From an uncultured Alphaproteobacteria bacterium (GTDB lineage Bacteria > Pseudomonadota > Alphaproteobacteria > CAAHEQ01 > UBA3637), in contig CALARE010000009.1 of assembly GCA_937888725.1 (NCBI GenBank), forward strand, positions 970-64,969: 64,000 bases of DNA, written 5' to 3'. A model generated the notes under the pieces. The model saw only the letters and a program-made list of their open reading frames with translations. It had not been told where the DNA came from and did no database searches. Of this stretch, positions 5,025 through 51,071 are shown one piece after another. The position numbers were made by a program, and so were the translations under genes. Each line of letters starts with the position of its first letter. Within the stretch, counting starts at the first letter, position 1.

Positions 5025-5111
5025 CGGCTCGGCCTCACGTTGCCCCCGTGAGTCCGCTTCTCTAACCTCTACGCATACAAAAATAGCCCTCAAAAGAGGG
5101 CTGTTTTTGTA

Positions 5112-5121
<10 letters not shown>
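5025..5121. repeat. ~100-bp direct repeat, copy 2, contiguous with tRNA-Thr
   Basis: Same sequence as 4838..4937 and overlaps the 3' end of the tRNA. Confidence 0.7.
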
Positions 5122-5186
<65 letters not shown>

Positions 5187-27555: not shown

Positions 27556-27632
27556 CGGAGTATAGCGCAGCCTGGTAGCGCACTCGTCTGGGGGGCGAGT
27601 GGTCGTGGGTTCAAATCCCGCTACTCCGACCA
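27556..27632 (+). tRNA. tRNA-Pro (anticodon GGG)
   Basis: Acceptor CGGAGTA/TACTCCG, anticodon arm CTCGT-CTGGGGG-GCGAG, T-arm GGTTCAAATCC, CCA encoded. Confidence 0.8.
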
Positions 27633-27639
27633 AATCAGA

Positions 27640-27670
27640 AAAAGACCACTTTTTAGTGGTCTTTTTTTTG
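27640..27670 (+). terminator. rho-independent terminator after tRNA-Pro
   Basis: aaagaccac…gtggtcttttttt hairpin plus T-run. Confidence 0.6.
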
Positions 27671-27801
27671 ATTTAGCCTGGAGAAGCGGGTTTGAAGTCA
27701 CGAGAAAGTGGGTTCAACCGCCGAAAAAAGGCAGACGAGAGTATGCCGGTTTTGTTTTAACAAAATTTTTCAAGGTCTGCGAAGGCTTTAAGCCGAAAGC
27801 A

Positions 27802-27822
27802 AAATCCCGCTACTCCGACCAA
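27802..27822 (+). repeat. 21-bp direct duplicate of the tRNA-Pro 3' end (att-like scar)
   Basis: aaatcccgctactccgaccaa is identical to 27613-27633. A further partial T-arm copy, gtgggttcaaccgcc, lies at about 27709-27723. Confidence 0.65.
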
Positions 27823-28171
27823 TATCAAAAAGCGGAAGTTTATACTTTCGCTTTTTTTGTTATCCAATTCCCCTGCAAAGCCCTAGGACAGCCAACTGTT
27901 AAAAAGTGATTTTATACCAAAATCGATGTGATTGCCGAGATTTTTCCAAATTGATATATACTTTTGCCCGAATATATATACCTTGTGCAATGTGATTTTT
28001 TCGCCAGAGCCACTTGACCGTAAGTTATTGTTTTTGAATAATTGATTATAATGGTATGACATTAACTTTCCGAATCTTGCCAAGCAGTGGTTGGTTTAGA
28101 AACCCAAAAACTGATATCACAATTTATACACCTCTCTAAAAGCCTTATTTTATAAGGGGTTTAATTTTTTT

Positions 28172-28193
28172 ATAACTTACACACATGGTGTTT
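28172..28193. repeat. 22-bp direct repeat flanking the two-gene helicase module (right-hand copy is at 37878..37899)
   Basis: ataacttacacacatggtgttt versus acaacttacgcacatggtgttt, 20 of 22 identical. Confidence 0.6.
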
Positions 28194-28239
28194 ACTATGC
28201 TATCTAATTATATAGTTTGATATAAAAATTCTTCGGCAT

Positions 28240-31200
28240 TTAATTCTTAGTGTAAAAAATTCTAGTTGGATAATTATCTCCTATTATGCTAGGTAATTCA
28301 ATGCTAATTTTTTGAACTTGAAAATCAACACTAGATTCAAATGGGAATAAATTTTCATAGTAATTGTACGCAGCACATCTCCAATATAAAAATCCTTGAT
28401 CGAAAATTAGATTTATAACATCCCCATTTTCTAGCTCAATAATTAAAATTCTATTGTGTTCTAGATATTTTTTATTTCTTTCTTGAATATTAAATTTTAG
28501 ATCAATGCTTGCAAACAATTTATTTAAAACAGCCTTGCGTTCAGATGATCTAGGCCATTCATCGTAAAATTTACCAGGTGTATATTTTATATTATCTTCA
28601 TTTTCACATGTTAATAAATTAATTTCAGTACACTTCCAATTATTTGCATATTTATTTTTTATTGCCTTTATAAAATTAAAGAATAAACCACAAGAAAGAG
28701 GATTTTTGATATAACGATCTTTGTACGTTATTTTTACTATATTGGATGAAATTCCGTTATTTAAACTCTCAGATAAAATATTTAACAAGCTTTGACCAAA
28801 TAAATTTCCGGAACAGTTTACTTCAGAGGAAATATTATACATTTTATCAAAGCTTGTTTTGATATCGCTGTTTAATGCTACATCGTAAAATTCTTTTTTA
28901 TCAATATCAATATATCCTGAAAGAATTGAAGTATTAACATTACTTCCCCAATATGGATTTAATTTTTTTACATCTTGATCTAAAGAAGCATAAGCATAAA
29001 AACCGGTACCGTTATTTATAACAGCCATTATATTCTTATTCAAATTATCTGGAATTGACTTTATTGAAACATTTTTATACTTAGAAAGCAATCCTAGAGT
29101 TTCTTTTACATCGTCACTGATTTTTGTCGCATCAACACATAAAATTGTATCAATTCCCATGGAATTATATCTATTTACTAATCTATATAATGGTGAGTTT
29201 AAAAAATCTTCATCATCATCTTGTTGGGGTACCAACAAATACAATTCCTTAATACTTAGAGTATCTTCAATTAAACTTTCGATACTGGCCGAAGCGATAA
29301 CTGTGGTATCGCCAAAAATTTTCATATTGTCGGCTAAAGTATTTTTTGAAATCCATTCATCTGTTAAAAAGTCTAAAGCTAATAACCTATCTAGGTGTTT
29401 ATAGTTGTATTTAGTATCATTTTGTAAAATACATTTATTACATGATTGAGCACAGTCACAAGTTAATGTATCTTTGGCATACTTAAATATGCGACTTAGA
29501 TTTTTGATAATATCATCAGATGAACAATAACCTGATGCATTTTTATCAAACAATTCTATTGAAAATCCTTTTTTATTTGATCCAACAAGTTTTATTTCTT
29601 TTGTTCCACAGCCAATTTCGTCAGTTTCGATATTCATATATTTGGCTATACCACTGCGAATTGCTACTGCCAATGAATATGCGAGAGTTTTATCGTTAAC
29701 AATTTCTCCGTTAATATCTGATAAAATAAGTTCCAAAACATCAGTTTTGACTTCAACTCCTAGAGAAATATTTTCCACTATTGAATATGGAGAATGATTA
29801 CATTCTACTTTCATATTTCTCATGTTGGGATTAAAACTATTTGCACTTCTTAAACGATAATGTGATTTTCTAAACTCAACTCTGTTCTTTTCATTGTTTG
29901 CAACAACTCTGCCACACTCTAAACAAAGTATGTAGCCGTCACCACCGCCATTTGAGTAATGAATGACACTTCCTTCTTTATCATTTTTATATTTTATGTA
30001 AGGTAAACCCAAATAATTATTTAAATCATTGTGAGCAGTAACTAGTGGTTCACATAAATTTACAAAATGTTGAACAGATACGTTATTATTAACGGGAGCA
30101 TTAAAATCAACAGAAAAACCTGCTGGCTGTATATACTTGTGAATATTATGTCTATCGATTTCTTCACCACATACATCACAGTGAATATCTAGTAATCTTG
30201 TTGATGTACCACTTGCACCACATTTATTACAACGCCAAAAATAACGAATTGACTGAATTTCTTTAACCTCTGTTTCTGAGGCAGGAATATGCCAATTTAG
30301 TGTAATACCTGCAGATTTATATACAAGACCATCAATAACAACATCGCTACCGGGAGCGTACTCTCTTAATGCTGTGCAAATATCTCTTGAAGGCAATTCT
30401 CTTCTTTTAAATAAATTGTCTTCTCTTTCTCCATAATTCTTTTGCATTCTATAGTCTTGATTTTCGATGCTATATCGATTGTTTGTATCAAAAGTTACGA
30501 TATTTATTGGAAAACCATATCGTGGTAAAATTCCATATCCTATCATTTCTTTTAATAGGTATTCATGCAGTAAGCGTGTCTCAGTATTTTTAATAGCGAT
30601 TAAACTAATTTTATGATCTTTTTCTCTCTTTTTTTGCTCTTGAATTGCATCATATTCAGCAAACCACTTCTTTTGCATATTTTCAATTTGCAGGCTCAAT
30701 TCTGAGACAAACACATCAAAACTAATATGTTCATAATGTGTATTTTTGATTAAAGAATGAATAGCCGCCTGAACTCGATTATTTGTTCTGATAGCATCTT
30801 TGCAGAAACGTTTAAATTTGGAAAGCTTATTATCTTTAAAAGGTAACATAAGCCATTCCATATTAAGTTTGGTCGCATCACTAATTTGGCCTTTAATTGA
30901 TTCAAAAAAGTAGGATAACAATAAAGAATTTATATGTCTCAATAATACAATAAAGCTGTATTGATCTACGTAAGGAGCATTTATTTTTGATGTAAATGCC
31001 CATTTGGGATGATTAAAAACATATTGGTCATGAGAGTTGTCTTTACATAAAGTAAAGCTTATCGCCTTTGTTTCTCTACGTCTTCCTGCACGTCCTGCAC
31101 GTTGTAAATAATTGGCCGGATGTGGCGGAACATTATTCATAGATGCAATCGTTATACCACCGATATCAACACCCATTTCCATTGTGGTTGAACAGTTAAG

Positions 31201-34200
31201 AACATTTATAGCTCCACTTTTAAATTCATCTTCATATCTTTTTAATAGTCGATGAGATTGTTGAGCCGAGTGTTCCGCTGTTCTGAAATATCTATTTCCA
31301 AGGATAATTGAGCTTGCAACGTTGCTCCATAACCCAAGTTTTTTTAAATTTTGTACATCTTCGTTGCTTTCAAGCCAATCTCTTCTTAATGAAATACATT
31401 CTTCATAAGATTTTCCTAGTTCATTTTTAAAATCATAAATTGGATAATTATATTTATTACACTTAGGGGTCGTTTTGCTTGAAGAATAAGGAGAATACCC
31501 TTTAAGTACAACATCTAAAGCCTTATTTGTCATAGGACAAATATAAATTTCTTTAGGTCTAGTTAAACCGATTTTATTTACATCTAATTTATATGTTTTT
31601 GCCGTTGACGGTGTTAAAATTCCAGTGGTAATTGTTAAAGCATCCCAAGCTTCTTTCATAATTTGATTTAAAATATCTAAATGAAGATCATTATCTATAC
31701 TTAAATCAAGAGCATATGACAATAAATTTATTATATTTTTATTTTTTTTCTTTTTTGCTACAGGCCAGTTTTCCTGATCTAAAGCTCTGTTTGTTCTTTG
31801 AAGAGCTCCCCATTTATTCCAGTTTTCAGGATAAGCAACATATCCATTGGCACGAATATAAAAATCTATTAGTATTTTAAGAAAGTCTTTCCATTCATTT
31901 AATTCAAAAAATCTATGTATAGTATCTGGTACTTTCGTGATTTTGCTAAAATCATAAACTGTTGATAACAATCCTAATGTTTCAACATTATTCGCTTTTT
32001 TCGGTCTTCGTAATAGTTCTCTAGCAAACAATATTTCTATTAAATTACGACGTCCTTTATCTGCATCAAAAATGGAATCTTTATCTCGATAATAATTATA
32101 TATCCATCTTAAATCATTGTCGTTAAATTCTTTTATTATTTGATTTAAGACCTCGTCTTCTTTTGCAAAAGAATCGTGTTTTTGTTCCAATTCTTTAATT
32201 GCATTTAATAAAGCAGGAAGTTTTGTCGTTTCATATAGTTTTTTTAATGCTGCAATATCAGTACTTCCTGATGGTTTTGTTTTTTCTTGTTCTAATAATG
32301 AAACAACGTGTAATAAGATACTTCTGAAACTGTTTCTTTCGGAGTTTTGTTGTAGTTGAACAGCTAACCTAGCAGTTCCCTGTCGGCTATCTGTAAAACA
32401 TATCATTTTCTGTCCTTTATGAGGATTTTCATCCAATTTTTCTCCTGCTTCAGCATAATTTAATAATGTCGGTAAAGCATGACTTAAAACAAATGGTGCA
32501 CCTTGCATAGGAAGAAATGATTTGATTTGGTCAATTTCAGGAGTATCACAACAATGGACATATTCATCATCTTCAAAAACATTTATCTTAATTCCATTTT
32601 CACAATTGCTAGACAATGAATTATCTGCAGTATTCAAATAAACAGAAGAATTATCATCTACATTGTAAATATATGCTGTGTGAGTTTCCAGTTCTACAAT
32701 ATTATTTTCTTCGTCTTCCAATGAAAACTCATCAACATTTTGCAACATCGTAGGATATAAGTATTTAGTGCCTGATTTTTTATCTTCACTGATTTTTGCT
32801 TCTAAGAAAGGTGTTCCACAATTTGAACAGGCTTTTACTCTGAAAACAGGAGCACCACATTCACAAGAGCATTGTTCTTTTAAGTAAATTTTTCCGTATT
32901 TCCACCCATCTATGTTGTCTTTATGCGTACATTTATCATTGCAGCAGGCCCATATACCAGGAAACGTCTTATGGAATAAATGCAAACGAAGTGGCAAAAA
33001 CGCCTTTTCTTTATTAGGAGTAACGGATAATAAATCAAGCCATTCTGCTGCTTCTTCCTTTGAAATTTTAAAAGTCTTACATATTTCTGATAAGGTTCTA
33101 GCAACAGAACGTGTCCCATCTTCAGAAATAAAGAATGATCGTAATTGGCAAGCAAATTTATTGTTTTTTAATTCTTTAATAAGTACATCAGGATCCGTTA
33201 TAATTTGCAGCTCAGATAATGATTTTGTTTGATTATCTGCTGTAATCGTTGGAATTTCATTATGTCCAAAAACAACTTCAATATTTTCTTCATTAACACC
33301 TGAAATACTTGATAAAAATTGTTTTAATTGCTGTTCTGCGTTTATGCTTCCGATAGTAGCAGATGTTGCGATAAACTTAACATCTTGAGCATTTACATCA
33401 AATGCATCTAAAACTCTCTTCAGAAGTAATGACAACTCTGCAGCTTGTGAACCAATATATGTATGAGCTTCGTCTAGAATAATGTATTTTAACATTCCCT
33501 TAGATTTATCAATAATTTGCTTATCATTTGCTCTAATAAGCATGTACTCTAACATCGTAGTATTGGTAATCAATAATGGTGCAGGAGATAAGCGAAGTCC
33601 CTGTCTATCGGTTATTTCTTCCAAGGATTTTTTTTGTTCGTGATTTGGATTTTCAGTAGGTAATAATCCATTATAAAGACAGAAACGAATTTTACCTTCG
33701 TAAGGTTTAGTCCATTCGCTAAAACGTTCTTTTTGGTTCTGAATTAATGCATTAAGAGGATATATAAATAAAGCCTGGACACCTTCTAAAACGTTTGAGC
33801 TACCTTTAGATTGTCTTACCAAATCAGATATGATGGGTATCATAAAGCATTCTGTTTTTCCTGAACCTGTACCACTTGAAACAACCAATGAATTATTTGT
33901 ATTTAATAATGTTTTCCAAGATGTTATTTGGTGTTCATAAGGGTGCATTGTTTTAGAAAATCTATATTCTGTAGATTTATTTAATACATTAACAAAAGAA
34001 CGTTCGAGCAGTTTTCCGGACAACTCTTCAAAAGAATTGCTATCTGTTTTATAACTAAACATTGGTTCAAACACAGGGTCAGAAAGGAATTTTTCATCTT
34101 CCAGTGAAAACTTATCTCTTAAAAACTCACGCAAATTTTGTGGCAATATGGATAAAGTGCTCATAATGGCATCTTTTGATTGCTCTGGTAATATTTTTAA

Positions 34201-34227
34201 GATTTCACTGTAACTGTTTCTTTTCAT
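28240..34227 (-). CDS. giant DEAH-box helicase with a DUF1998/MZB-type zinc-ribbon domain and an unknown ~600-aa C-terminal domain (DruE-like, 1995 aa)
   Basis: Motif I SSGTGSGKTE, motif II ILDEAHTY, motif VI QRAGRAGRR. After the helicase core come paired CxxC zinc ribbons (CNKCG…CDVCG, CLECG…C…C, CDCAQSCNKC). It is translationally coupled 1 nt after the upstream gene. Confidence 0.6.
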   Translation of the reverse strand: MKRNSYSEILKILPEQSKDAIMSTLSILPQNLREFLRDKFSLEDEKFLSDPVFEPMFSYKTDSNSFEELSGKLLERSFVNVLNKSTEYRFSKTMHPYEHQITSWKTLLNTNNSLVVSSGTGSGKTECFMIPIISDLVRQSKGSSNVLEGVQALFIYPLNALIQNQKERFSEWTKPYEGKIRFCLYNGLLPTENPNHEQKKSLEEITDRQGLRLSPAPLLITNTTMLEYMLIRANDKQIIDKSKGMLKYIILDEAHTYIGSQAAELSLLLKRVLDAFDVNAQDVKFIATSATIGSINAEQQLKQFLSSISGVNEENIEVVFGHNEIPTITADNQTKSLSELQIITDPDVLIKELKNNKFACQLRSFFISEDGTRSVARTLSEICKTFKISKEEAAEWLDLLSVTPNKEKAFLPLRLHLFHKTFPGIWACCNDKCTHKDNIDGWKYGKIYLKEQCSCECGAPVFRVKACSNCGTPFLEAKISEDKKSGTKYLYPTMLQNVDEFSLEDEENNIVELETHTAYIYNVDDNSSVYLNTADNSLSSNCENGIKINVFEDDEYVHCCDTPEIDQIKSFLPMQGAPFVLSHALPTLLNYAEAGEKLDENPHKGQKMICFTDSRQGTARLAVQLQQNSERNSFRSILLHVVSLLEQEKTKPSGSTDIAALKKLYETTKLPALLNAIKELEQKHDSFAKEDEVLNQIIKEFNDNDLRWIYNYYRDKDSIFDADKGRRNLIEILFARELLRRPKKANNVETLGLLSTVYDFSKITKVPDTIHRFFELNEWKDFLKILIDFYIRANGYVAYPENWNKWGALQRTNRALDQENWPVAKKKKNKNIINLLSYALDLSIDNDLHLDILNQIMKEAWDALTITTGILTPSTAKTYKLDVNKIGLTRPKEIYICPMTNKALDVVLKGYSPYSSSKTTPKCNKYNYPIYDFKNELGKSYEECISLRRDWLESNEDVQNLKKLGLWSNVASSIILGNRYFRTAEHSAQQSHRLLKRYEDEFKSGAINVLNCSTTMEMGVDIGGITIASMNNVPPHPANYLQRAGRAGRRRETKAISFTLCKDNSHDQYVFNHPKWAFTSKINAPYVDQYSFIVLLRHINSLLLSYFFESIKGQISDATKLNMEWLMLPFKDNKLSKFKRFCKDAIRTNNRVQAAIHSLIKNTHYEHISFDVFVSELSLQIENMQKKWFAEYDAIQEQKKREKDHKISLIAIKNTETRLLHEYLLKEMIGYGILPRYGFPINIVTFDTNNRYSIENQDYRMQKNYGEREDNLFKRRELPSRDICTALREYAPGSDVVIDGLVYKSAGITLNWHIPASETEVKEIQSIRYFWRCNKCGASGTSTRLLDIHCDVCGEEIDRHNIHKYIQPAGFSVDFNAPVNNNVSVQHFVNLCEPLVTAHNDLNNYLGLPYIKYKNDKEGSVIHYSNGGGDGYILCLECGRVVANNEKNRVEFRKSHYRLRSANSFNPNMRNMKVECNHSPYSIVENISLGVEVKTDVLELILSDINGEIVNDKTLAYSLAVAIRSGIAKYMNIETDEIGCGTKEIKLVGSNKKGFSIELFDKNASGYCSSDDIIKNLSRIFKYAKDTLTCDCAQSCNKCILQNDTKYNYKHLDRLLALDFLTDEWISKNTLADNMKIFGDTTVIASASIESLIEDTLSIKELYLLVPQQDDDEDFLNSPLYRLVNRYNSMGIDTILCVDATKISDDVKETLGLLSKYKNVSIKSIPDNLNKNIMAVINNGTGFYAYASLDQDVKKLNPYWGSNVNTSILSGYIDIDKKEFYDVALNSDIKTSFDKMYNISSEVNCSGNLFGQSLLNILSESLNNGISSNIVKITYKDRYIKNPLSCGLFFNFIKAIKNKYANNWKCTEINLLTCENEDNIKYTPGKFYDEWPRSSERKAVLNKLFASIDLKFNIQERNKKYLEHNRILIIELENGDVINLIFDQGFLYWRCAAYNYYENLFPFESSVDFQVQKISIELPSIIGDNYPTRIFYTKN

Positions 34228-34228
34228 G

Positions 34229-37200
34229 TTATCCTGCCAATTTTTGGTTTAACATTATAGATATTGCAATTTTATACACTTCTATAAAATAATTTTGGTT
34301 AAAATTTATAAAATCTTTTATTGAAAATTTAATTAATTCATTAATATTTGATGGGTTTGAATTAAGCTCTTGATAAAAAGAATAAAAAGCACAGACTTGA
34401 GGGAAATTAACAACATCTTCTATAAAGTAATTAAATTTATTCAATCTAAATAAATGTTTTTCAAGATTACTTAATTCTACCGGGTGTTTTACTTTTATTT
34501 CATTGTATACCTTATCAAATGGTAGATATATCCAATTATCTTCCTCTAATGAATTTTGTGTTTGTAGTTGATGCATCCAACACATTTCAACAATATTCCC
34601 GTATTCGTCAAATACTTGTTTTGTAAAAATTTCATCACTTAGCTCTTTAATACTTTTTGTATTTGCGATAGAAACATGAGGAACGATATTGCCAAGTATA
34701 AGAAAATTGTAAAACTTTGAAAGCAAACCGCAAAGTGAATAATATACAGCCAATTCTATTTCGGGGAATGTTTCAGACAAGATATTAAATTGCTCATTAA
34801 TTTGCGATTTTAGAATTTCTTCCATGCCTGGTATAGAAGAAAATGTTGTTTTAATATAGTTTAAATATTCTTCAATAGCAGGCTCCCAAAGTGAGAATGG
34901 GATAGTTGCCGGAACAGATATTACTTCTTCTTTTATTTTTTGAAGCATAAATCTATCAGATGAAAAATAGATGAGCAATCTGCATAATATTTTTTCATCT
35001 GAACATAATATTTGCCAAAGGTTCATAGATGATAGTGGAATGTCGTGTGAAACAAAAATTTGCTTCAAACTACTAATATCTTTCCATACATCAGATGAAA
35101 AATCTGAAAGGTTTGCAAGTATGATATCTTTTATTTGTTGTTTATTATCGGCCTCTAAAACAGCTTCTTCAATTTCTTCAAAAGAAGCATCTGAGTAAGA
35201 AATTTCATTTTTTAAAATTACTAATTTATATAATTCGGTAAGTTCATCTAGACTAGTATCACTATATAGAATTAGAGGTTTGGTGTTTATTTGAGATTTT
35301 TTATCAGAAACCAGGATGTAACAATTCTTTTTTAAATCAATTGGTTCAATACTCCAATATCCTGTACATATTTGGTCCTCCATCTTCTGCTCAAGAATAA
35401 CAGGTTCACATTCAGGATCGGATAAATTGATGGCTTTGACTATTGTGTTTTTGAGCATGTCATTTGTATACATACCAAAATTTGCAGGCGGTATATAAAC
35501 TGATTGGGTTTCTAGCAACAGATGTGTATCGTATCTTGAAACATTTATAAATCCCAAATTTTTATTTTCTAACGTTATAGATATTTTGACTTTGTCATCT
35601 TCATTTTCGGAATACCCAAATAAATTTTTTATATTGTCTTCAAAATCAATTAATTTAATCTCTGTTAATACGTCATTTGTGTATATATGGCGTGTTAAAG
35701 ACAAATTTTTACTTGTTCGTACTTTTGTACGTAATTCAAAATGAAGTTTATATTTTGAAGAAGATTTTAAGTTATTAAATATTCTAATTCTTTTGCCCAT
35801 TAAATGAACTAAAGAAATATTAGAAGAATTTATACATTTTTTATTTTCATCAAAAAATGATACTCCAACTGAAGGGTATGGAAGATATATCAGAGATGTA
35901 CCACCGCTATACCAATATATCTTAAAACATACTTTATCTGGTTTTGTTGTTGTAGTTTCAAATTGAAATTCACATCCATCAACTACTGTGCATTTTAATG
36001 AATCAGATAATAATGGTTCAATTTTAATGGCATTTAAACTATTAAGCTTAATTACTCCATTACCATTTTCCAACGCATTAAAATTTATTGATGAACTGGG
36101 TGGTAATATCGTCACGCTAAAAGTTTTAGAAATACCACCATGGGTACAATTGATATCAAGATTTCCCGAAAACTTATTGATGTCTACAATGGGGTGTGTT
36201 GTATCTTTGTAATAATAATTTATATATCGTGAAGAAACATCATTTTTTTTAGAAGTCTCATCATAATATATAATTTTTGGAATTCCACGATAAGCAACAA
36301 ATGGGAAAGTTTTATACGTTATAATATTGCCTTCTACACAATATTTATTGTTTGAAGGGTTAGATGAATTTAATTGAACAAAAAAGTCATCAAATTCAAA
36401 ACTTTCTTTGCATTTAATTAATCTGAAGACAATATCGTCAATTACAATATCAGTTACATATTCACCTACTGAACTATAATCATTGTTTTTTTCATTATAT
36501 GCTATAAAGCATTCGCTTTCTCTTAAATACGCACTTCCATTGTTTTTTAATATTAATAGGCCATCTTCGTTTTCAGTAAATACAAGGGGCCTATTAACAT
36601 CAATTGATTGAGAAATTGTGATGCTATTTGATTGTATTTTATTATCAGCACTGGATAAAAATAATGTTACAGAATTTTTGACATCAAGTCTATCGTCAAA
36701 TTGTCTTATTTTATACTGTTTTTTTGATCCAAGTATTAAGTTTACAATAGCAATTGTTGTATTTTCGCTATCTAAGTTATTGATATAAAATGTTTGAGGT
36801 AATGTATTTACATCAGTAATTCCAAAATATTTTGAAAAATATTTAGCCTCTACATTAAATTCAGGAAAAATAAATTGAAATTTTAATTTATTTGAATTTT
36901 CTAAATCCAGTATTCTTTCAACTGTTGGGATTTTCCCCTGTACTCTCACTCCTGTGGAACGACTTGCTTCTTCTACGAAACCACTCAACATTTTTTCAAC
37001 AGATGCATCCTCCATAAGAAGAGGAAACTGAGACTTCCAATCTGGAGCTCGTTGATTTAATATTTGAATTGGATTTTTATACTCTTGTAGCTTATAATCT
37101 ATTTTTAGCTTGATAATAGTTGTTACTAAACTTGTAATAAGTTCACAAATTTCATCTTTTCTAATGGCTTCAGGAAGTATTTTTTGCAGATTTTTAACAT

Positions 37201-37720
37201 ATGCAAATAATTCAGCTCCGTTTGAAGTATGCTCTGTTGCAAATCTAATTGTATGATGCAGTATTTTTACAACAGGAGAATTTTTGCTTGCTGCTTGTAT
37301 AAATTTAGAAGGAATACCACCATTTGCTACAATTGCACCTAAATATTTTTTACCAGAAACTAAAGTTATGTTATACTTCCAGTACTGTAAAGCTTCTATA
37401 ATTGCATTGGTTCTTACGTTGGATTGATATATTTTTAATTCGTCATTGGAAATAGATGAAAATATGGGATCCCATGACCAAGCACCACCCTTGTATTCAC
37501 GTTTCCACCATTCAGAAGCATAAAGCACAAAGCAGCGAGAAAAATACTTATTTTTAAGCAAATCTACGAGCGAATGGTATTGACAGCAATATTTTAGTTT
37601 GTTTCTAAGGTCTTCGTATTCTGCTTTGTTCATCTGATATGCATAAAGCATCATGCCATTTGGGTAAGGCATATTCCTTTTTTGTAAAAAATCTCTTAAA
37701 AATTCATGTAATATTTCCAT
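34229..37720 (-). CDS. large hypothetical protein (~1163 aa) with no recognisable motifs, upstream partner of the helicase (DruH-like by position)
   Basis: Long uninterrupted ORF. The start is chosen at the ATG at 37718-37720, preceded by AAAGGTG (the ORF-track start at 37756 has no RBS). The stop is 1 nt before the helicase ATG. Confidence 0.5.
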   Translation of the reverse strand: MEILHEFLRDFLQKRNMPYPNGMMLYAYQMNKAEYEDLRNKLKYCCQYHSLVDLLKNKYFSRCFVLYASEWWKREYKGGAWSWDPIFSSISNDELKIYQSNVRTNAIIEALQYWKYNITLVSGKKYLGAIVANGGIPSKFIQAASKNSPVVKILHHTIRFATEHTSNGAELFAYVKNLQKILPEAIRKDEICELITSLVTTIIKLKIDYKLQEYKNPIQILNQRAPDWKSQFPLLMEDASVEKMLSGFVEEASRSTGVRVQGKIPTVERILDLENSNKLKFQFIFPEFNVEAKYFSKYFGITDVNTLPQTFYINNLDSENTTIAIVNLILGSKKQYKIRQFDDRLDVKNSVTLFLSSADNKIQSNSITISQSIDVNRPLVFTENEDGLLILKNNGSAYLRESECFIAYNEKNNDYSSVGEYVTDIVIDDIVFRLIKCKESFEFDDFFVQLNSSNPSNNKYCVEGNIITYKTFPFVAYRGIPKIIYYDETSKKNDVSSRYINYYYKDTTHPIVDINKFSGNLDINCTHGGISKTFSVTILPPSSSINFNALENGNGVIKLNSLNAIKIEPLLSDSLKCTVVDGCEFQFETTTTKPDKVCFKIYWYSGGTSLIYLPYPSVGVSFFDENKKCINSSNISLVHLMGKRIRIFNNLKSSSKYKLHFELRTKVRTSKNLSLTRHIYTNDVLTEIKLIDFEDNIKNLFGYSENEDDKVKISITLENKNLGFINVSRYDTHLLLETQSVYIPPANFGMYTNDMLKNTIVKAINLSDPECEPVILEQKMEDQICTGYWSIEPIDLKKNCYILVSDKKSQINTKPLILYSDTSLDELTELYKLVILKNEISYSDASFEEIEEAVLEADNKQQIKDIILANLSDFSSDVWKDISSLKQIFVSHDIPLSSMNLWQILCSDEKILCRLLIYFSSDRFMLQKIKEEVISVPATIPFSLWEPAIEEYLNYIKTTFSSIPGMEEILKSQINEQFNILSETFPEIELAVYYSLCGLLSKFYNFLILGNIVPHVSIANTKSIKELSDEIFTKQVFDEYGNIVEMCWMHQLQTQNSLEEDNWIYLPFDKVYNEIKVKHPVELSNLEKHLFRLNKFNYFIEDVVNFPQVCAFYSFYQELNSNPSNINELIKFSIKDFINFNQNYFIEVYKIAISIMLNQKLAG

Positions 37721-37877
37721 ATAGGCACCTTTAATGAATACAATATTGTATTTCATAGCATATTTTTTTTAATTATTCAACAAACTTCATTATTAGAAGT
37801 GCCAAAAAATGACGTTTGTTCATATGTTTTTTTGCAAAAATAGTTAAGGTATCTACTTTAAGGAACTTTAATATTTT

Positions 37878-37899
37878 CTACAACTTACGCACATGGTGT
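37878..37899. repeat. 22-bp direct repeat, second copy, in the divergent promoter region
   Basis: See 28172..28193. Confidence 0.6.
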
Positions 37900-38020
37900 T
37901 TGGGGTATATAAAGAGATTTTCATTTTTTTTGAAAAAAATGACTATTTTCTTGCAATTTTAGGTATAAGTCGTTAAAATGTGACGGATTATAATTTTATG
38001 CTGATAAATGAGGTGTTTTC

Positions 38021-40069
38021 ATGGCAGACGATATTCAAATTCAAAAAATGGACGGCAAGAGCCTTGATGTGACGGGCGTAAACAAGGAAAAGTTGAAAAC
38101 GGTTTTTCCTGAGTGTTTTACCGAGGGTAATTTGGATATTGATAAACTGTTGTCTTTATGTGGTGAATACATAGACAACGATTTTGAAAAGTATAAATTT
38201 GAATGGAAAGGCAAATCTGAATGTTATCGGATTACTGGTAAGCGTTCAACCGGGACACTTCGTCCTTGTGTGGAAGAGAGCGTGGATTTTGAAAACACCA
38301 ATAATCTTTATATTGAAGGCGACAATTTAGAAGTTTTGAAACTTTTACAAACAGCCTATTATCGCAAAGTCAAAATGATTTATATTGATCCGCCGTATAA
38401 CACAGGCAATGATTTTGTTTATGAAGATGATTTTAAGAACCCGATGGCAAAATATAAAGAAATTACAAGCCAAACAACAAAATCAAATCCCGAAACAATG
38501 GGCAGATATCATACCAACTGGTTGAATATGATGTATCCTCGCTTGCGTTTAGCCTCTAACTTACTTCGTGATGATGGTGTGATTTTTATCAGCATTGATG
38601 ATAATGAAGTTACAAATCTTCGTCGTTTATGCGATGAGGTATTTGGGGAGGAGAATTTTGTAGCTCAATTTATAGTAGCCTCTAATTCAACAAAAAATAA
38701 TTCAAAATATGTTTCTGTTTCTCATGAGTATATTTTATGTTACTGTAAAAATATCTACTCACTTGGAGATGAGTGGAAAGTAAAAAAGAATAACGTTGAT
38801 GAATATTACAATCGTGCAATGCAACTTGTTAAAAGAAATTTATCAGAAGATGAGATTCATAATGAATTATTAGAGTTGGTAAAATATCCAAGATTTTATG
38901 ATTTAGATCACTATACCTATGCGGATAAAAAAGGAATATATCAGACAGATAATCCTGGTGGAGTAACCAATGGAAATATGCTTACGGAAGTTATTCATCC
39001 TGTAACAGGAAAAGTCTGTGCAAAACCCATTGGGGGTTGGAGATATAAAGATGAAGAAATCAAAAGATTAGAAAAAGAAGGTTTGTTAGCTTTTGGTAAA
39101 GATGAGACAATCGTTCCTAGACCTAAACGATATTTAGGGGATTATATTTATCAAGTTCCTAAATCAACGCTTTTCTTTGACTCTCAATCATCTACAAAAT
39201 GGTTAAAAGCTAATAATTTGCCTTTTGATTTTGCAAAGGCAGTTGATTTTATAAAGTATATTTTATCTACCTCATCTAAGGAAGACGATATCATTCTTGA
39301 CTTTTTCTCAGGCTCTGCAACTACGGCTCATGCAGTTATGCAATTAAATGCCGAAGATGGTGGCAAACGTCAATTTATCATGGTGCAATTACCGGAAGTA
39401 ACCGATGAAAAGTCTGAAGCATTCAAAGCCGGATATAAAAACATTTGTGAAATAGGTAAAGAGCGTATCCGTCGTGCCGGTGCTAAAATCAAAGCAGAAG
39501 ATGATTTATGGAAAGAAGTTCCTCTTAATCGACTTCCCACACCAGAAGCACAGGCTTGGGTGCCTCCAAATTTAGTTAGAGTAGAAGACTTAAAAGATAG
39601 AAAATCACCAATAGAATATGTTGATGAAAGTAAAAATCCTGATGTTGGCTTTAAAGTATTCAAATTAGATACTTCAAACCTTGTTAAATGGGATGATACT
39701 CCTATTGAAGGGGTTGATACAACCGATTTGTTTAATCGTATGGACGGTATGGTTGAAAGCATTAAAAAAGACCGGACCGAACTTGATGTTGTCTATGAAG
39801 TAATGTTAAAACTCGGGATTCCCTTGACATATAAAGTCTTTGAAAATGAAGTGAATGGTCGCAAAGTTTACTCTATTGGCGATGATGGGTTGATTTTGGT
39901 ATGCTTGGATAAATCAAATGGCGGCATTACACCGGAAGATATTTCTGCTATGTGCGATTTAACACCGGCTAAAATCGTAGCTGCAGAAGAAGCCTTTAAG
40001 GACGATGTCGCTCTTTCAAACGCTTACTACATCTCAAAAGACAAAGGCGTGGAAATAGAATTGTTGTAG
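38021..40069 (+). CDS. mod: Type III R-M-like N6-adenine DNA methyltransferase (Mod, beta-class)
   Basis: Motif IV DPPY (IYIDPPYNTGNDF) N-terminal to motif I FLDFFSGSATT, ~680 aa, GAGGTG RBS. Confidence 0.75.
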   Translation: MADDIQIQKMDGKSLDVTGVNKEKLKTVFPECFTEGNLDIDKLLSLCGEYIDNDFEKYKFEWKGKSECYRITGKRSTGTLRPCVEESVDFENTNNLYIEGDNLEVLKLLQTAYYRKVKMIYIDPPYNTGNDFVYEDDFKNPMAKYKEITSQTTKSNPETMGRYHTNWLNMMYPRLRLASNLLRDDGVIFISIDDNEVTNLRRLCDEVFGEENFVAQFIVASNSTKNNSKYVSVSHEYILCYCKNIYSLGDEWKVKKNNVDEYYNRAMQLVKRNLSEDEIHNELLELVKYPRFYDLDHYTYADKKGIYQTDNPGGVTNGNMLTEVIHPVTGKVCAKPIGGWRYKDEEIKRLEKEGLLAFGKDETIVPRPKRYLGDYIYQVPKSTLFFDSQSSTKWLKANNLPFDFAKAVDFIKYILSTSSKEDDIILDFFSGSATTAHAVMQLNAEDGGKRQFIMVQLPEVTDEKSEAFKAGYKNICEIGKERIRRAGAKIKAEDDLWKEVPLNRLPTPEAQAWVPPNLVRVEDLKDRKSPIEYVDESKNPDVGFKVFKLDTSNLVKWDDTPIEGVDTTDLFNRMDGMVESIKKDRTELDVVYEVMLKLGIPLTYKVFENEVNGRKVYSIGDDGLILVCLDKSNGGITPEDISAMCDLTPAKIVAAEEAFKDDVALSNAYYISKDKGVEIELL

Positions 40070-40079
40070 AGGTGTTGGG

Positions 40080-40802
40080 ATGATTTTTATATTTGAAGAA
40101 ATAATAACAAAAGGTTTTTGGGATTGGATTGAAACAATAGCCACAATATTGGGTAATATTGGTCTTTTTATTATTACTTTTTACGTATTCTGGAAACAAT
40201 ATTTTTCAAAAAATATAAAAATAACTTCAAGCGGAGAACATTCGTCTATTTACTTTGGAAATGCGATTAACTGTACGCTTTTTAACAAGACACTTTCACC
40301 TGTTGTTGTTGAAAAAATTGATGTTGTATATGATAATAAATATGAAGTAACTATAAAAGATTTTAAAGAAAATCCTCTTGTTCTAGAATATTTTAGATCA
40401 GCTTATATTAAAGGGGAAAGATATACTTCATTATCTGAAAAATTAAATACTCTTTTTGCAAGAGATGTCTATTATAAAGTCAAAACCCCAGATAAAACTA
40501 TACTGATAAAAAGTAGAGGAAAAATAAAGAAGAAAAATAAACTTACGCATATTGCAACATTTACACAACGTTTTGATGATACTGTAATTTCAAAAGGTGT
40601 ACGCTATGTTTTAATTTATTGGCTAAAAGGAACTAAGGAATTTAATAGGGTATTCATTTTAGATAACGGTATGATGGACAAGAATATTGCAAACTTCAAT
40701 CAATTACCAAGAGAAATTCTTGGCAAACCAAAAGAAATGTTAAAGTTTTTTAAAGAAACATTCAACAATCCAGATTTAAATATTCGGATTCATGAACTTT
40801 AA
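40080..40802 (+). CDS. small membrane protein of unknown function inserted between mod and res
   Basis: 240-aa ORF with an N-terminal TM helix (IATILGNIGLFIITFYVFW). An AGGTG RBS sits 10 nt after the mod stop. Confidence 0.5.
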   Translation: MIFIFEEIITKGFWDWIETIATILGNIGLFIITFYVFWKQYFSKNIKITSSGEHSSIYFGNAINCTLFNKTLSPVVVEKIDVVYDNKYEVTIKDFKENPLVLEYFRSAYIKGERYTSLSEKLNTLFARDVYYKVKTPDKTILIKSRGKIKKKNKLTHIATFTQRFDDTVISKGVRYVLIYWLKGTKEFNRVFILDNGMMDKNIANFNQLPREILGKPKEMLKFFKETFNNPDLNIRIHEL

Positions 40803-40829
40803 TCAGTTTATTGCCAAGTGAGGATATTA

Positions 40830-43800
40830 ATGAAACTAAAGTTTAAGAATCAAGAATTTCAGACCGATGCCGTGAATGCGGCGGTGGAGCTGTTCAAAGG
40901 CCAAGAAAAAGCAAATATGACTTTTTCAATCGCTGATAACTCCGCGCAAGCCTCTTTTTTGCAAAATGAATTCGGTTTTGGTAACAAGTTGGTGTTAGAT
41001 GAGGAAACAATAAACAACAATCTTCATGCAATCCAAAAAGCTCATTCTCTCCCCCAAACCGATATTGAATCTGGCAAAGCCTTGCCCATTTCTATTGAAA
41101 TGGAAACCGGAACCGGTAAAACCTATGTTTACACAAAAACTATTTTGGAACTCAATAAACGTTATGGTTTTACAAAATTTATCATTGTTGTGCCAAGCAT
41201 TGCTATTCGTGAAGGTGTGAATAAATCTTTCCAAATCACCGAAGAACACTTTAAAAATCAGTATGACAGCGTGCCTTACAGATATTTTATCTATAATTCG
41301 GCTAAACTGTCTGATGTTCGGGCTTTTGCAACCTCCAGTAACATTGAAATTATGATTATCAACATTGATGCTTTCAAAAAAGCTGAAAATATCATCAATC
41401 AAGAGCAAGAAAAGCTCAATGGCGAAACCGCAATGAGATATATTCAAGACACAAATCCGGTTGTGATTATTGATGAACCGCAAAGCGTTGATAATACACC
41501 TAAGGCAAAAGAAGCCATTGCGACCTTAAATCCTTTGTGTGTCTTACGTTATTCTGCAACCCACAGAGAAAAGCAAAATCTTGTCTATCGTTTAACGCCG
41601 GTTGATACTTATCAAATGGGATTGGTTAAGCAGATTTGTGTTATTTCAAACTCGGTTATCAACGATTCAAACAAGCCTTACATTGCATTAAAATCTGTTT
41701 CCAGTAGCGGTGGATTTAGTGCCAAAATTGAAATCGATGTTGAAGGTAAAGACGGTAAAGTGTCCCGTAAAACAATAACCGTTAAGCCGGGAGATGATCT
41801 GTACTTAAAATCAGGACATCGTCAATTATACGAAGGCTATGTCGTGGCCGGTATTGACTGTACAAGCGGTTATGAGTGTATTGAATTTTCTAATGCCGAA
41901 TGCTTGAATTTAGGTAAAACCATCGGTAGTGTTGATGAAAGTATCATTAAACGAGCTCAGATTTATCACACCATCAAAACACATTTGGAAAAGGAAATCC
42001 GCTTGTTTGACAAAGGAATTAAGGTCTTGTCCTTGTTCTTTATTGATGAAGTTAAAAAATACCGTTTAGAGGATGGCGGACAAGGTATTTATGCCAAAAT
42101 GTTTGAAGAATGCTATAACGAATTGATAAATAATCCTCGTTATGCTGTTTTAAAAGAAAAGTTTAATACGGATGTTACCAAGGCTCATGACGGATATTTC
42201 TCTCAGGATAAAAAAGGTAAATATAAAGACACCAAGGGCGATACGCAGGCCGATGATGATACCTATAACACCATTATGAAAGACAAAGAAAAACTGCTAT
42301 CTTTTGAATGTCCGTTAAGATTTATCTTCTCTCACTCCGCACTAAAAGAAGGTTGGGATAACCCGAACGTTTTCCAAGTTTGCACTTTAATCGAGCAAAA
42401 ATCGGTCTTTACCTGTCGTCAAAAGGTCGGTCGAGGACTTCGTTTGTGTGTCAATCAGGATGGCGAACGCATTGAGGATAAAGACGTCAATGTCTTGCAT
42501 GTCATTGCTAATGAAAGCTTTGCCGAGTTTGCCGATAAACTGCAAAAAGAAATTGAAGAAGAAACCGGCGTTAAGTTTGGTGTTTTGGAAATCGGTATGT
42601 TGACAGGGTTAACTTACGAAGAAGAAGTTAAGGTTGAAAAACAAATCTCTCAGGAAACTGCCGAAACAGTTGTTCAAGAACTTCAAAAGACCGGCGTTAT
42701 TGATGATTGTGGGGCGGTTAATAAAGAAGTGGCCGTTGAAACAATTGAGCTTTCAAGTGTGCCGGAACCTGTTAAAAAAGAAATTATTGAAACGATAAGA
42801 CAGGAAAAACCCGTAACAGTTGCTGCTCTTTCGCAAACAACCTATACCGAAACAAAGGTTGAAAAAGTTTCTGTCAGCTATGAAGAAGCCGTTCAAATCA
42901 TGGAAGATTTAAAAGGCACTCAGGTCATTGACAGTAAAGGTAAAATCAAAGATACCATGAAGGCAGAACTGGCCGCCGGTACTTTGAATTTAAGCGACAG
43001 ATGGTCAAAGGCAAAACAACGTGCTGTTTTACAGGCCTTAAATAAAGCCGATAATAAACCGGTTATTCGGGATGCAAGCAAAGAAGTGACTGTTAAATTA
43101 AAGAAAAAAGCAATCCTTAGTCCCGAATTTATGGAATTGTGGAATAAAATCAAGCAAAAGACCACTTATCGTGTTCAATTTGATTTGGATACTTTGGTTG
43201 CAAACAGCATTAAAGAAATTAAGGAAATGCCCGAAATCGGAACGGCTCGCTTACTCAGTCAAACAGCCAGTGTTAATATTGAAAAATCGGGTGTTTCGCA
43301 CCAAGCAGGAAGAACATATATTCAAGATTTAACCCGTAACTATGAAACATTACCGGATATTTTACGCCTGATTTCCACGAAGACGCTTTTGAAACGGTCA
43401 ACAGTTAATCGTATTTTACAAGAAAGTGGTCGCATGGCAGACTTTTTGAAGAATCCGCAAGAGTTTTATGAAAAAACATTGGAAATTATTGAACGCAATC
43501 GTCATAAATTGGCTATTGACGGTATTAAGTATATTAAACTCGCCGATGAAGAATACTATGTTCAAGAAATTTTTGACAGCACTGAGTTGATAGCTAACCT
43601 TGATAAGAACGCAGTTGCCGTTGAAAACAGTGTTTATGATCATGTCATTTATGATAGTGGAGTTGAAAGCAAATTTGCTGTTGCCTTGGATAAAGATCCG
43701 GATGTTAAAATGTTCTTTAAAATCCCAAGCCGATTTAAAATTGAAACACCTATCGGAACCTATAATCCGGACTGGGCAGTTTATTTAGAGAAAAATGGCG

Positions 43801-43973
43801 AGCAAAAACTTTACTTTGTGTTAGAAACCAAAGGAACGGATAATTTATTCTTGCTTAGAGAAGAAGAAAAATTGAAAATCATGTGCGGAGCCGAACACTT
43901 TAAGGCTTTAGACGGCGTTAGTTTTTCAAAAAATCCTGTCAGAGAATGGAAAGAATTTAAACAAACGGTGTAA
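40830..43973 (+). CDS. res: Type III restriction enzyme Res subunit (SF2 helicase/ATPase plus C-terminal PD-(D/E)xK nuclease)
   Basis: METGTGKTYV (motif I), VIIDEPQS (motif II), QKVGRGLR (motif VI), and a C-terminal …YNPDWAVY…LETKG nuclease motif. GAGGA RBS. Confidence 0.75.
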   Translation: MKLKFKNQEFQTDAVNAAVELFKGQEKANMTFSIADNSAQASFLQNEFGFGNKLVLDEETINNNLHAIQKAHSLPQTDIESGKALPISIEMETGTGKTYVYTKTILELNKRYGFTKFIIVVPSIAIREGVNKSFQITEEHFKNQYDSVPYRYFIYNSAKLSDVRAFATSSNIEIMIINIDAFKKAENIINQEQEKLNGETAMRYIQDTNPVVIIDEPQSVDNTPKAKEAIATLNPLCVLRYSATHREKQNLVYRLTPVDTYQMGLVKQICVISNSVINDSNKPYIALKSVSSSGGFSAKIEIDVEGKDGKVSRKTITVKPGDDLYLKSGHRQLYEGYVVAGIDCTSGYECIEFSNAECLNLGKTIGSVDESIIKRAQIYHTIKTHLEKEIRLFDKGIKVLSLFFIDEVKKYRLEDGGQGIYAKMFEECYNELINNPRYAVLKEKFNTDVTKAHDGYFSQDKKGKYKDTKGDTQADDDTYNTIMKDKEKLLSFECPLRFIFSHSALKEGWDNPNVFQVCTLIEQKSVFTCRQKVGRGLRLCVNQDGERIEDKDVNVLHVIANESFAEFADKLQKEIEEETGVKFGVLEIGMLTGLTYEEEVKVEKQISQETAETVVQELQKTGVIDDCGAVNKEVAVETIELSSVPEPVKKEIIETIRQEKPVTVAALSQTTYTETKVEKVSVSYEEAVQIMEDLKGTQVIDSKGKIKDTMKAELAAGTLNLSDRWSKAKQRAVLQALNKADNKPVIRDASKEVTVKLKKKAILSPEFMELWNKIKQKTTYRVQFDLDTLVANSIKEIKEMPEIGTARLLSQTASVNIEKSGVSHQAGRTYIQDLTRNYETLPDILRLISTKTLLKRSTVNRILQESGRMADFLKNPQEFYEKTLEIIERNRHKLAIDGIKYIKLADEEYYVQEIFDSTELIANLDKNAVAVENSVYDHVIYDSGVESKFAVALDKDPDVKMFFKIPSRFKIETPIGTYNPDWAVYLEKNGEQKLYFVLETKGTDNLFLLREEEKLKIMCGAEHFKALDGVSFSKNPVREWKEFKQTV

Positions 43974-43976
43974 ACA

Positions 43977-46541: not shown

Positions 46542-46566
46542 TCGTTTCTTTATAGCGAAACATGTG

Positions 46567-47499
46567 TTATGTTGAGCTAATAAAATTTTTATTTTTTTTC
46601 ATTTTTAAATAATAAGGACAATCATTGCAAGGAATATCAATTGTATTGTCCTGCATACATTTTCCAGTTAAGAGTCTTTTTGCATAACGAACTTCTTTTG
46701 ATTTTAAAGCCTTTTCTAGTCCAACATTAAAAACATTACATTTAAAATCATTTAAATAAACACAACAGCATCCCAACAAACGACCATCCCAATTAATTTG
46801 AGGGGAATTCCATAATTCCAAACAAGGTATCCAATTGAAAGAAAAAGGTGTTTCTTTAGAAAAAGATAACTTGGTTTCTTTTTCAAGCAAATCAGAATTT
46901 ATAGGTATAAAACTTTCATTCCATGTCTTTTTAAAAGAAATTGACATGTTCAATTGTTTTGCTAGTTTTTTTGCTCGTTTTATTTCATTAATATCTTGCG
47001 TTGTATCCATAACAATATACTGCCAGTTCAACAACGGATAATTGCTGTGGTAGATTTCTTTATACTTATTTATCAATTCAATATTAGCAATCACCTTATT
47101 AAATTTTCCATTGATGCGATAGGTTTTATATACTTCATCAGAAGCTCCATCTAAAGAGATGTTTAAAGAATAAAGTTGAAATTTAACTATTTTTTCTATA
47201 GCTGTTTCTTTTATTGAATTTAAATTAACTCCATTATTGGCGGTTAATTTGATTTTATTATTATAAGCAATTTCTAAAATTTTTTCAAAGTCAGGATTTA
47301 AAAAAATTTCACCACTGTTTGATATTTCTATTTCCTGTATAAAGGGATTTCGTTTGAGAAATTCTTTAAACTGTTCTGCAGTTGTATACCCTTTTCCAAC
47401 AGTTCCGTAATTTGACTTTCTCATATAGCAATCTTTACATTTTAATTGACAAGCTGTACATATATCCAATCTCACTCTTTTAGGTAATCTATGCGTCAT
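46567..47499 (-). CDS. radical SAM / SPASM-domain protein
   Basis: CxxxCxxC (CQLKCKDC) near the N-terminus and a C-terminal Cys-rich cluster. AAAGGA RBS. Confidence 0.65.
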   Translation of the reverse strand: MTHRLPKRVRLDICTACQLKCKDCYMRKSNYGTVGKGYTTAEQFKEFLKRNPFIQEIEISNSGEIFLNPDFEKILEIAYNNKIKLTANNGVNLNSIKETAIEKIVKFQLYSLNISLDGASDEVYKTYRINGKFNKVIANIELINKYKEIYHSNYPLLNWQYIVMDTTQDINEIKRAKKLAKQLNMSISFKKTWNESFIPINSDLLEKETKLSFSKETPFSFNWIPCLELWNSPQINWDGRLLGCCCVYLNDFKCNVFNVGLEKALKSKEVRYAKRLLTGKCMQDNTIDIPCNDCPYYLKMKKNKNFISST

Positions 47500-47564
47500 A
47501 ATAAATCCTTTTGTTTTTTATTAGGATAACATAAAAAATATAAGTTTGTCAAAATATAAATTTA

Positions 47565-47592
47565 TTGATTTTTTGAGAAAATATGTTATAAT
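47565..47592 (+). promoter_or_regulatory. candidate promoter TTGATT-16-TGTTATAAT (extended -10)
   Basis: Upstream of the acetyltransferase gene. Confidence 0.4.
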
Positions 47593-47616
47593 ATAGAAAG
47601 TTTTGATTTAATAGGT

Positions 47617-48171
47617 ATGACCATGAATAAAATAAAAAATAATTCTTTATATAAAGGTAATGAACCAGAATTATTAAGATTAAAAGAACAAACAGCAAAG
47701 ATATTACATGAAATTAATTTGGCCTCTCCAATAGATAGAGAAAAAAGTCATAGAACTTTATTCCCTTTGATTTTTAATCGCTTGGGAAAAAACACTTGGT
47801 TTGAACTTCCTTTTAATTGCGATTACGGAAAACATATTGAAATAGGAGAAAACTGTTATTTTAACCATCATTGTTCTATTGGTGACGGTGGAAAAGTAAT
47901 TATTGGAAATAATGTTTTAATTGGTCCATATGTCGGCATTTATACGGCACAACATCCTCTAGATTCTAAACTGCGATTAGAAGGATGGCAAAGCGTTTCA
48001 GATATTGAAATCGGAGATAATGTATGGATTGGAGCTAATTGTACCATTCTTTCTGGGGTAAAAATAGGAAACAATGCCGTGATTGGGGCTGGAAGCGTTG
48101 TAACAAAAGATATTCCTGAAAATACATTGGCCTATGGAGTACCATGTAAAATTATAAAGATTTTAACATAA
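47617..48171 (+). CDS. hexapeptide-repeat O-acetyltransferase (maltose/galactoside acetyltransferase-like)
   Basis: Left-handed beta-helix hexapeptide repeats (IGDGGKVIIGNNVLIGP…IGANCTIL…IGAGSVV). Confidence 0.75.
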   Translation: MTMNKIKNNSLYKGNEPELLRLKEQTAKILHEINLASPIDREKSHRTLFPLIFNRLGKNTWFELPFNCDYGKHIEIGENCYFNHHCSIGDGGKVIIGNNVLIGPYVGIYTAQHPLDSKLRLEGWQSVSDIEIGDNVWIGANCTILSGVKIGNNAVIGAGSVVTKDIPENTLAYGVPCKIIKILT

Positions 48172-48182
48172 AGAGAGGTATT

Positions 48183-51069: not shown

Positions 51070-51071
51070 TT

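Follow-up and report, generated by a model that had tools for sequence, protein, structure and literature searches.

A terminator-bounded, tRNA-linked repeat module downstream of tRNA-Pro at the edge of a variable defence region

Introduction

When a run of defence genes begins right beside a duplicated tRNA 3' end, what does the duplication record? Such a locus is found on a contig (CALARE010000009.1) of an uncultured gut alphaproteobacterium, of which we analysed a stretch of 64,000 nt (hereafter the window; related contigs carry L numbers). An earlier note on this DNA had read two nested tRNA fragments as the product of repeated integrase-mediated insertions at tRNA-Pro, and the DNA to their right as a candidate accreted island. 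What are these fragments, what else do they keep company with, and is an integrase needed to account for them?

Results

The duplicated tRNA-Pro 3' end is part of a single module

The 21-mer AAATCCCGCTACTCCGACCAA, which consists of the last 20 nt of tRNA-Pro and the A that follows, occurs at 27613-27633 and again at 27802-27822. These are its only two matches in 64 kb, even when 3 mismatches are allowed, where shuffled sequence leads us to expect 0. With 189 nt from start to start and a gap of 168 nt, the recurrence some 170 bp downstream that the earlier note had described is borne out. So is its second T-arm copy, gtgggttcaaccgcc, which lies at 27708-27722, one base off the position of about 27709-27723 given there, as well as the G+C-rich, structured character of the stretch in between: G+C content is 46% versus a window mean of 33%, and the stretch folds better than 200/200 shuffled versions, with z = -4.3 when the terminator is left out and z = -5.4 when it is included.

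Rather than two scars left by an integrase, these pieces make up a single module between two intrinsic terminators (27679-27822; Table 1). It opens with an inverted copy of the tRNA 3' end and continues through a short loop into a direct T-arm copy; three G+C-rich hairpins come next, and a direct copy of the tRNA's last 20 nt ends the structured repeat, which is roughly 145 bases long in all. When aligned with the reverse-complemented 3' end of tRNA-Pro, the inverted arm scores 28-32, which 0/500 shuffles reach, and it does not match the other tRNAs. It pairs with the tail to give a closing helix that resembles an acceptor/T-stem and ends in ACCA (inverted repeat I2). The same arm also takes part in a larger symmetry: tRNA 3' half, terminator and inverted arm together form one long imperfect palindrome, with arms of ~50 nt, that is centred on the terminator loop. 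The palindrome of the window's Pro locus scores 58, that of a tRNA-Thr locus discussed below 53 and that of the related contig L022 58, none of which is reached by any of 300 shuffles (0/300); a tRNA-Val control scores 16. A strong terminator precedes each unit, and no promoter-like site was found upstream of the Pro unit. Small open reading frames in the unit extend to 36 aa at most and none starts with ATG, so that we dropped the reading of a tpr-like peptide.

Table 1. Coordinates of the tRNA genes, repeat units, terminators and variable region in the window
Feature	Position	Strand	Remarks
tRNA-Pro(GGG), CCA encoded	27556..27632	+	ARAGORN and Rfam
Intrinsic terminator T1 (aaaaagaccac-ttttta-gtggtc-T8)	27639..27669	+	Centre of the long palindrome; left arm is the tRNA 3' half
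Unit 5' arm TGGAGAAGCGGGTTTGAAGTCACGA	27679..27703	+	Inverted copy of tRNA-Pro 3' end: acceptor 3' strand and T-arm
Direct, nearly complete T-arm copy GTGGGTTCAACCGCC	27708..27722	+	Pairs with inverted arm over loop GAGAAA to form hairpin H1
Hairpin H2, GNRA tetraloop	27730..27747	+	Loop GAGA here, GGAA in L014, GCAA in L022
Hairpin H3 (GGTTTTGT/ACAAAATT)	27748..27767	+	Stem kept in three species, loop variable
Hairpin H4 (GC..GGCT-loop-AGCC..GC)	27779..27800	+	GGCT/AGCC core common to U1 and U3 unit types
3' tail, second 21-mer	27802..27822	+	Last 20 nt of tRNA-Pro and A, direct copy
Intrinsic terminator T2	27827..27856	+	Directly after the tRNA in L002
Variable mosaic defence and glycan region	27823..56712 (right end about)	.	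Replaces NUDIX gene of L001/L003
tRNA-Thr(GGT)	5112..5186	-	Bears downstream unit of Pro-unit architecture
tRNA-Thr-linked unit	4928..5065	-	Starts 49 nt after tRNA-Thr
Truncated second tRNA-Thr-linked unit	4840..4881	-	Only 5' arm, loop and start of direct arm

A unit with the same architecture follows tRNA-Thr

The earlier note had reasoned that finding the repeat behind an unrelated tRNA would speak against integration. In substance, this is what we observe: a unit of the same architecture follows tRNA-Thr (5065->4928). It comprises an inverted T-arm copy, GAGAAGCGGACTCACG (5062->5047, 15/16 nt), half a T-arm in direct orientation (5038->5029), a body rich in G+C and, as its tail, AGCGGCACCA (4937->4928), and it is flanked by identical terminators (5110->5077 before, 4926->4893 after) for a period of ~184 bp. 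Beyond the 10-nt tail, about 88 nt of downstream sequence are also identical. The window's tRNA-Val has a terminator alone and no unit. The contigs of three independent relatives (L036-L038) all end within the first terminator after tRNA-Thr and show no units, which is consistent with assemblies having broken off at the repeat or palindrome.

All unit types, including those introduced below, share a relationship to their own tRNA. Their first 60 nt align to the reverse complement of that tRNA's 3' end and not to those of other tRNAs, with arm scores of 24-31 that 0/500 shuffles reach (Pro units of four species, the Thr unit and the E. coli tyrT repeats). The inverted copy is longest in units of type U3, where it spans all 35 terminal nt and begins with TTGGT, the complement of ACCAA. 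The arm gives way to a loop (GAGAAA or GAGCAAGA), the 5' half of a direct T-arm, 75-90 nt of G+C-rich hairpins and a direct 3' tail; the bodies of every type are hairpin-rich and G+C-rich in a genome of 33% G+C.

Unit number and flanking sequence vary among close relatives

An exact-protein look-up of the neighbouring TyrS yielded five contigs from strains with identical TyrS. Despite 100% identity of this protein, these strains present four different right-hand contexts beyond tRNA-Pro, which bears out the claim of a variable, accreted region rightward of the second copy. In L003, tRNA-Pro is followed by terminator A, 'gatttagcctggaga' and a NUDIX gene. L001 has a window-type unit (U1) after tRNA-Pro and then two further units, U2 and U3, each with its own terminator, so that three stand in tandem with no island; a second copy of terminator A and 'gatttagcctggaga' follow U3, and then NUDIX. 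In L002, terminator B of the window and the 400 bp beyond it adjoin tRNA-Pro directly, followed by a Type III R-M system, so that this strain keeps the island but has no module. L004 diverges immediately after terminator A. Two details of these contigs deserve mention. The seemingly empty sites of L001 (8540-8600) and L003 (845-872) retain TGATTTAGCCTGGAGA, the first 16 nt of the inverted arm, after terminator A, and because of this remnant they look like deletion derivatives of a unit-bearing locus, not pristine sites. Multiple offset matches to L001 at window positions 18050-18700 trace to internal repeats in the gene of a large YadA-anchor protein, a repeat-variable adhesin.

Further afield, a scan of the genome collection for the unit's 5' motif returned only L013 and L014, 'Alphaproteobacteria bacterium' MAGs of two further species with tRNA-Pro, terminator and U1 in this order. 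Their TyrS (L013 2180-3313, L014 718-1935) is only ~33% identical to that of the window; the tRNA-Pro next to it is identical and the promoter similar. Two different TyrS types therefore neighbour tRNA-Pro in related genomes. In the sister species represented by L022/L023 (TyrS 94% identical), tRNA-Pro is followed by a terminator, a U3-like unit, another terminator and a U1-like unit. Pro-type units thus follow tRNA-Pro in three other species (L013, L014, L022). A search for more species by way of TyrS homologues gave no new units because synteny with tRNA-Pro is not kept there. At tRNA-Pro, the window has one unit, L001 three and L022/L023 two, with a range of 0-3 among close strains; tRNA-Thr has ~1.3. 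From their occurrence in L001, L013, L014 and L022/L023, and their absence in others, U1, U2 and U3 are a small family tied to tRNA-Pro, with or without the island, in 0-3 copies.

Searches beyond these loci came up empty. Viral and metagenome scans for unit 5' motifs returned chance matches only, viral scans for motifs of the U2/U3 tail, the U3 body and the U1 body found nothing, and BLAST of the unit against phage and plasmid records gave no match. At permissive thresholds, Rfam assigned the units to no family, including RtT, tmRNA and Y-RNA-like ones; a weak match to HrrF reflects terminator similarity only.

One way to obtain several copies and several subtypes of a short element with inverted terminal arms (11-15 nt, inverted repeat I2) would be a MITE-like miniature transposable element, whose terminal inverted repeats resemble the tRNA end by chance. 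We regard this as extremely improbable. Chance resemblance does not account for arms that match the local tRNA at each locus, be it Pro or Thr, nor transposition for a position and orientation relative to the tRNA that are always the same. Dispersed copies are absent from the 64 kb and from the fetched loci, there is no target-site duplication, and exact-pattern scans of genome, metagenome and viral collections place the unit only beside tRNA-Pro. Other identities were set aside more quickly: the unit is too short for a group II intron or IS fragment and has no ORF, there is no IntI to go with an integron attC site, and ARAGORN was negative for a split or permuted tRNA or tmRNA.

The variable slot lacks the hallmarks of site-specific integration

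To the right of the module, the region encodes a DEAD-helicase, a 1175-aa gene product, a Type III R-M system, SNF2, a glycan cluster and ABC-F before the conserved backbone, as judged by homology to L001, resumes at about 56712-56814. In place of all this, L001 and L003 have a single NUDIX gene, for which the region is thus a substitute and not a neighbouring insertion. In L002, the Type III R-M part is present and the helicase cassette (28193-37859) absent. This cassette of ~9.6 kb (28240-37756, minus strand), which pairs a 1995-aa DEAD/ResIII helicase-domain protein with a 1175-aa protein without Pfam match, may be a separately acquired defence system. L014 carries a DpnII-type R-M system (D12 methyltransferase, N6_N4 methyltransferase and DpnII endonuclease; 3793-6941) between a truncated U1 and NUDIX. 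Given the different content of L002, L014, L001/L003 and the window, the slot that follows the last unit is a hot spot of variation, and in several genomes it houses defence genes.

This setting invites comparison with tRNA genes that serve as att sites of integrative elements or islands, where a direct repeat of the tRNA 3' end likewise lies beside a variable, defence-rich region. Here, however, the repeat encloses just 168 bp, with neither an integrase nor a second repeat at the far end. Imagine that the fragments were indeed attL/attR-type scars of repeated integrase insertions, marking the left end of the island. The direct repeat, exact over 21 nt, would be as expected, as would the fact that the window and L002 differ by exactly the repeat-bounded 189 bp and that the variable region begins just after the tail in every genome seen. 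Yet we would also expect repeat and element to go together in relatives, and they do not: L001 has units only and L002 the island only. Module and island occur independently, and the module is conserved in other species (L013, L014, L022).

The machinery is missing as well. No recombinase or integrase was recognised by Pfam in the 15 ORFs of at least 100 aa that the island contains (27.8-56.7 kb), which upholds for these ORFs the earlier note's remark that the window has no integrase gene, and none was recognised among the neighbours in L014 and L022. The far att copy that the note had envisaged did not materialise: between 27.9 and 64 kb, no copy of the 3' 45 nt of tRNA-Pro rises above shuffled background, and no tRNA-derived repeat stands at the right end of the region. 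The junction in L014 falls inside the T-stem copy of U1 (between AAAATCCC and TTAAC) and not after CCA, from which we conclude that junction positions are not site-specific. Scars would, moreover, leave the inverted arm and the palindrome unexplained, along with the like unit after tRNA-Thr, and nothing resembling the unit was found in viral, phage or plasmid collections.

A viral contig does offer the integration reading some encouragement. L021 (IMG/VR, 55 kb) has the 3' 50 nt of a tRNA-Pro, from anticodon arm to CCA and with the same last 20 nt, at 4560-4665; a terminator follows whose start, AGCGGGTTTCAAG, resembles the start AGCGGGTTTGAAG of the units, and no unit is carried. This piece is probably an attP or a prophage end, and it shows that phages can target that sequence. 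Taken together, we consider integrase scars very unlikely and this reading largely refuted; the evidence points to homologous or illegitimate exchange rather than site-specific integration.

The units resemble the tRNA-linked repeats of E. coli

A closer parallel is provided by the tRNA-linked repeats (TLRs; rtT/RttR, RrA/B/F) of E. coli, described by Egan and Landy in 1978 and by Rudd in 1999, as reviewed in PMC8144298. [quoted passage not shown] Some lie between dual terminators and are transcribed by read-through, E. coli relatives being both transcribed and processed, and for the 5S-linked members conservation is reported only within Enterobacterales (PMC8144298).

The Pro and Thr units share this architecture almost point by point. 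They lie directly downstream of their tRNA on the same strand (47 nt after it for Pro, 49 nt for Thr) and repeat its 3' end over 20-21 nt (Pro, 21/21) or 10 nt (Thr), compared to the 18-19 bp in E. coli. As in TLRs, there are 1-5 tandem copies with partial terminal ones that recur every 180 nt or so (E. coli, 178; Pro and Thr loci, 184-189), and the interior holds a direct T-arm-like piece and G+C-rich hairpins. The 5' arm of the E. coli TLR is an inverted copy of the T-arm and acceptor end of tRNA-Tyr, just as the arms of the Pro and Thr units are of theirs, and the Pro unit's layout matches the dual-terminator case (PMC8144298). Measured from the tRNA end, the inverted arm starts at +35-59 nt and the direct tail at +159-169 nt for the window's Pro and Thr loci, L022 and E. 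coli tyrV. The tyrT locus is an exception, its best tail match being at +272. Controls (tRNA-Val, two tRNA-Lys, tRNA-Ser and the Pro genes of L002 and L003) remain at background score.

Is this homology? The E. coli tyrT locus gives four matches to the Rfam RtT model (RF00391), at 133-137 bits, and the closing helix of the RtT consensus, a 5' GGGGAAGG with a tRNA-like tail, is of the same kind as that of the Pro unit. The model does not match at E <= 10 within 27400-28250 or 4750-5250 (gathering score 45 bits), nor is there a match in sequence, so that what links the units to the TLRs of E. coli is their architecture, homology not being shown. The Pro and Thr units are thus a TLR kind of element, not a shown member of RF00391. 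Differences exist in the hosts (gut Alphaproteobacteria here, Enterobacterales for TLRs), in the cognate tRNAs, which here are Pro and Thr, and in the palindrome of tRNA half, terminator and inverted arm, which is clean here and weak or absent at E. coli tyrT.

tRNA-like end domains and small RNAs derived from tRNA operons also bear comparison, namely the tRNA-like domain of tmRNA and 3'ETS-leuZ. Like these, the unit brings its 5' and 3' ends together in an acceptor/T-stem-like helix with ACCA at its end, and it probably derives from a tRNA transcript. It differs in lacking a D-arm, an anticodon arm and a tag reading frame, and in being located past a terminator and not within a spacer; neither ARAGORN nor the Rfam tRNA and tmRNA models recognise the Pro unit.

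Read-through RNA or by-product of DNA rearrangement?

By analogy with TLRs, the unit is probably a small read-through RNA whose end helix resembles the top half of a tRNA. Folded in isolation, the Pro unit is predicted to join its 5' arm and tail in a helix of ~11 bp that ends in ACCA and closes a multi-branch junction. The prediction for the full read-through transcript differs: at lowest energy, the inverted arm is paired not with the tail but with the tRNA. Which of the two folds forms would depend on co-transcriptional kinetics. Three U1 sequences can be compared for signs of constraint. H2 keeps a GNRA loop in three versions, beside two pairs that have changed on both sides and yet remain paired, and variable columns make up 9/64 of paired compared to 15/56 of unpaired positions (p = 0.11, three sequences). 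In the closing helix, L022 has one change without compensation. With three sequences, these patterns are only suggestive of constraint at the RNA level.

The same anatomy might have arisen with no RNA function at all, as a neutral or mildly selfish DNA by-product of template switching and unequal crossing-over, in which the palindrome drives switching at the terminator hairpin and gene conversion keeps up the similarity to the tRNA. A terminator-centred palindrome, truncated units at array ends and the swing from 0 to 3 copies among close strains are all in keeping with such an origin. Strong terminators on both sides and the lack of a promoter-like site fit it too, and so do the U2 and U3 units of L001, whose tail (CCCGAACGAAGACCAA) no longer pairs with their 5' arms. 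E. coli TLRs themselves have otherwise 'no known function' 45 years on (PMC8144298).

Several observations sit less easily with a mere by-product. It would not be expected to retain a GNRA loop in three versions beside compensatory pairs, nor to maintain G+C-rich, hairpin-rich bodies in a 33% G+C genome, and the E. coli relatives are transcribed and processed (PMC8144298). The units are also conserved at least as well as tyrS and far better than neighbouring genes: between species, tyrS is 84.7% identical and neighbouring genes 70-72%, set against 88.6% for U1 (window versus L022) and 98% for the U3 body (L001 versus L022), although such high identity of the units could come from recent recombination instead of selection. 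On balance we think a functionless by-product somewhat unlikely. We favour, with moderate confidence, the view that 27634-27856 is one tRNA-linked repeat module of the TLR/RtT type that probably gives rise to a low-level read-through RNA and whose arms were copied from the adjacent tRNA.

Discussion

How might such a module come about and what might it do? The arms appear to have been copied from the adjacent tRNA, probably in two ways: by copying that folds back or switches template at the terminator hairpin, and by unequal crossing-over of the tRNA 3' end with the tail. Neither would need an integrase. If the module works as RrA/B/F and RttR do in E. coli, T1 would fail to stop a minority of the transcripts initiated at the tRNA-Pro promoter. 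The unit so transcribed would fold into a multi-branched structure, its ~11 bp closing helix with ACCA end mimicking an acceptor/T-stem stack, and T2 would end transcription. Enzymes that trim tRNA ends may then, again by analogy, release a discrete RNA of ~145 nt.

At the level of DNA, unit number and right-hand flank differ between strains at the short repeats, and the tail thereby constitutes the left junction of the variable defence slot. Homologous recombination between these repeats is the likely cause of the strain differences. Finding a tRNA 3' end duplicated next to a defence island does not, on its own, amount to evidence of integrase-mediated insertion.

More speculatively, TLR-type modules might form a widespread class that arises independently, by fold-back copying of a tRNA 3' half at a terminator. 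Once formed, they would persist as RNAs made by read-through, mimics of a tRNA's top half that might, for example, engage tRNA-end-processing enzymes or RNA-binding regulators, and their repeats and palindromes would seed recombination hot spots for defence islands. We hold this broader proposal to be doubtful as it stands. If it were true, the Pro and Thr units would extend the class beyond Enterobacterales for the first time and offer a comparative handle on a puzzle that dates from 1978, E. coli TLRs having been known since then with no accepted origin or function. The same architecture, with a very clean terminator-centred palindrome, has been rebuilt from two tRNAs in an unrelated, uncultured gut lineage, which suggests a general generative mechanism, and the Pro and Thr units supply independent sequences for comparative tests of structure and function.
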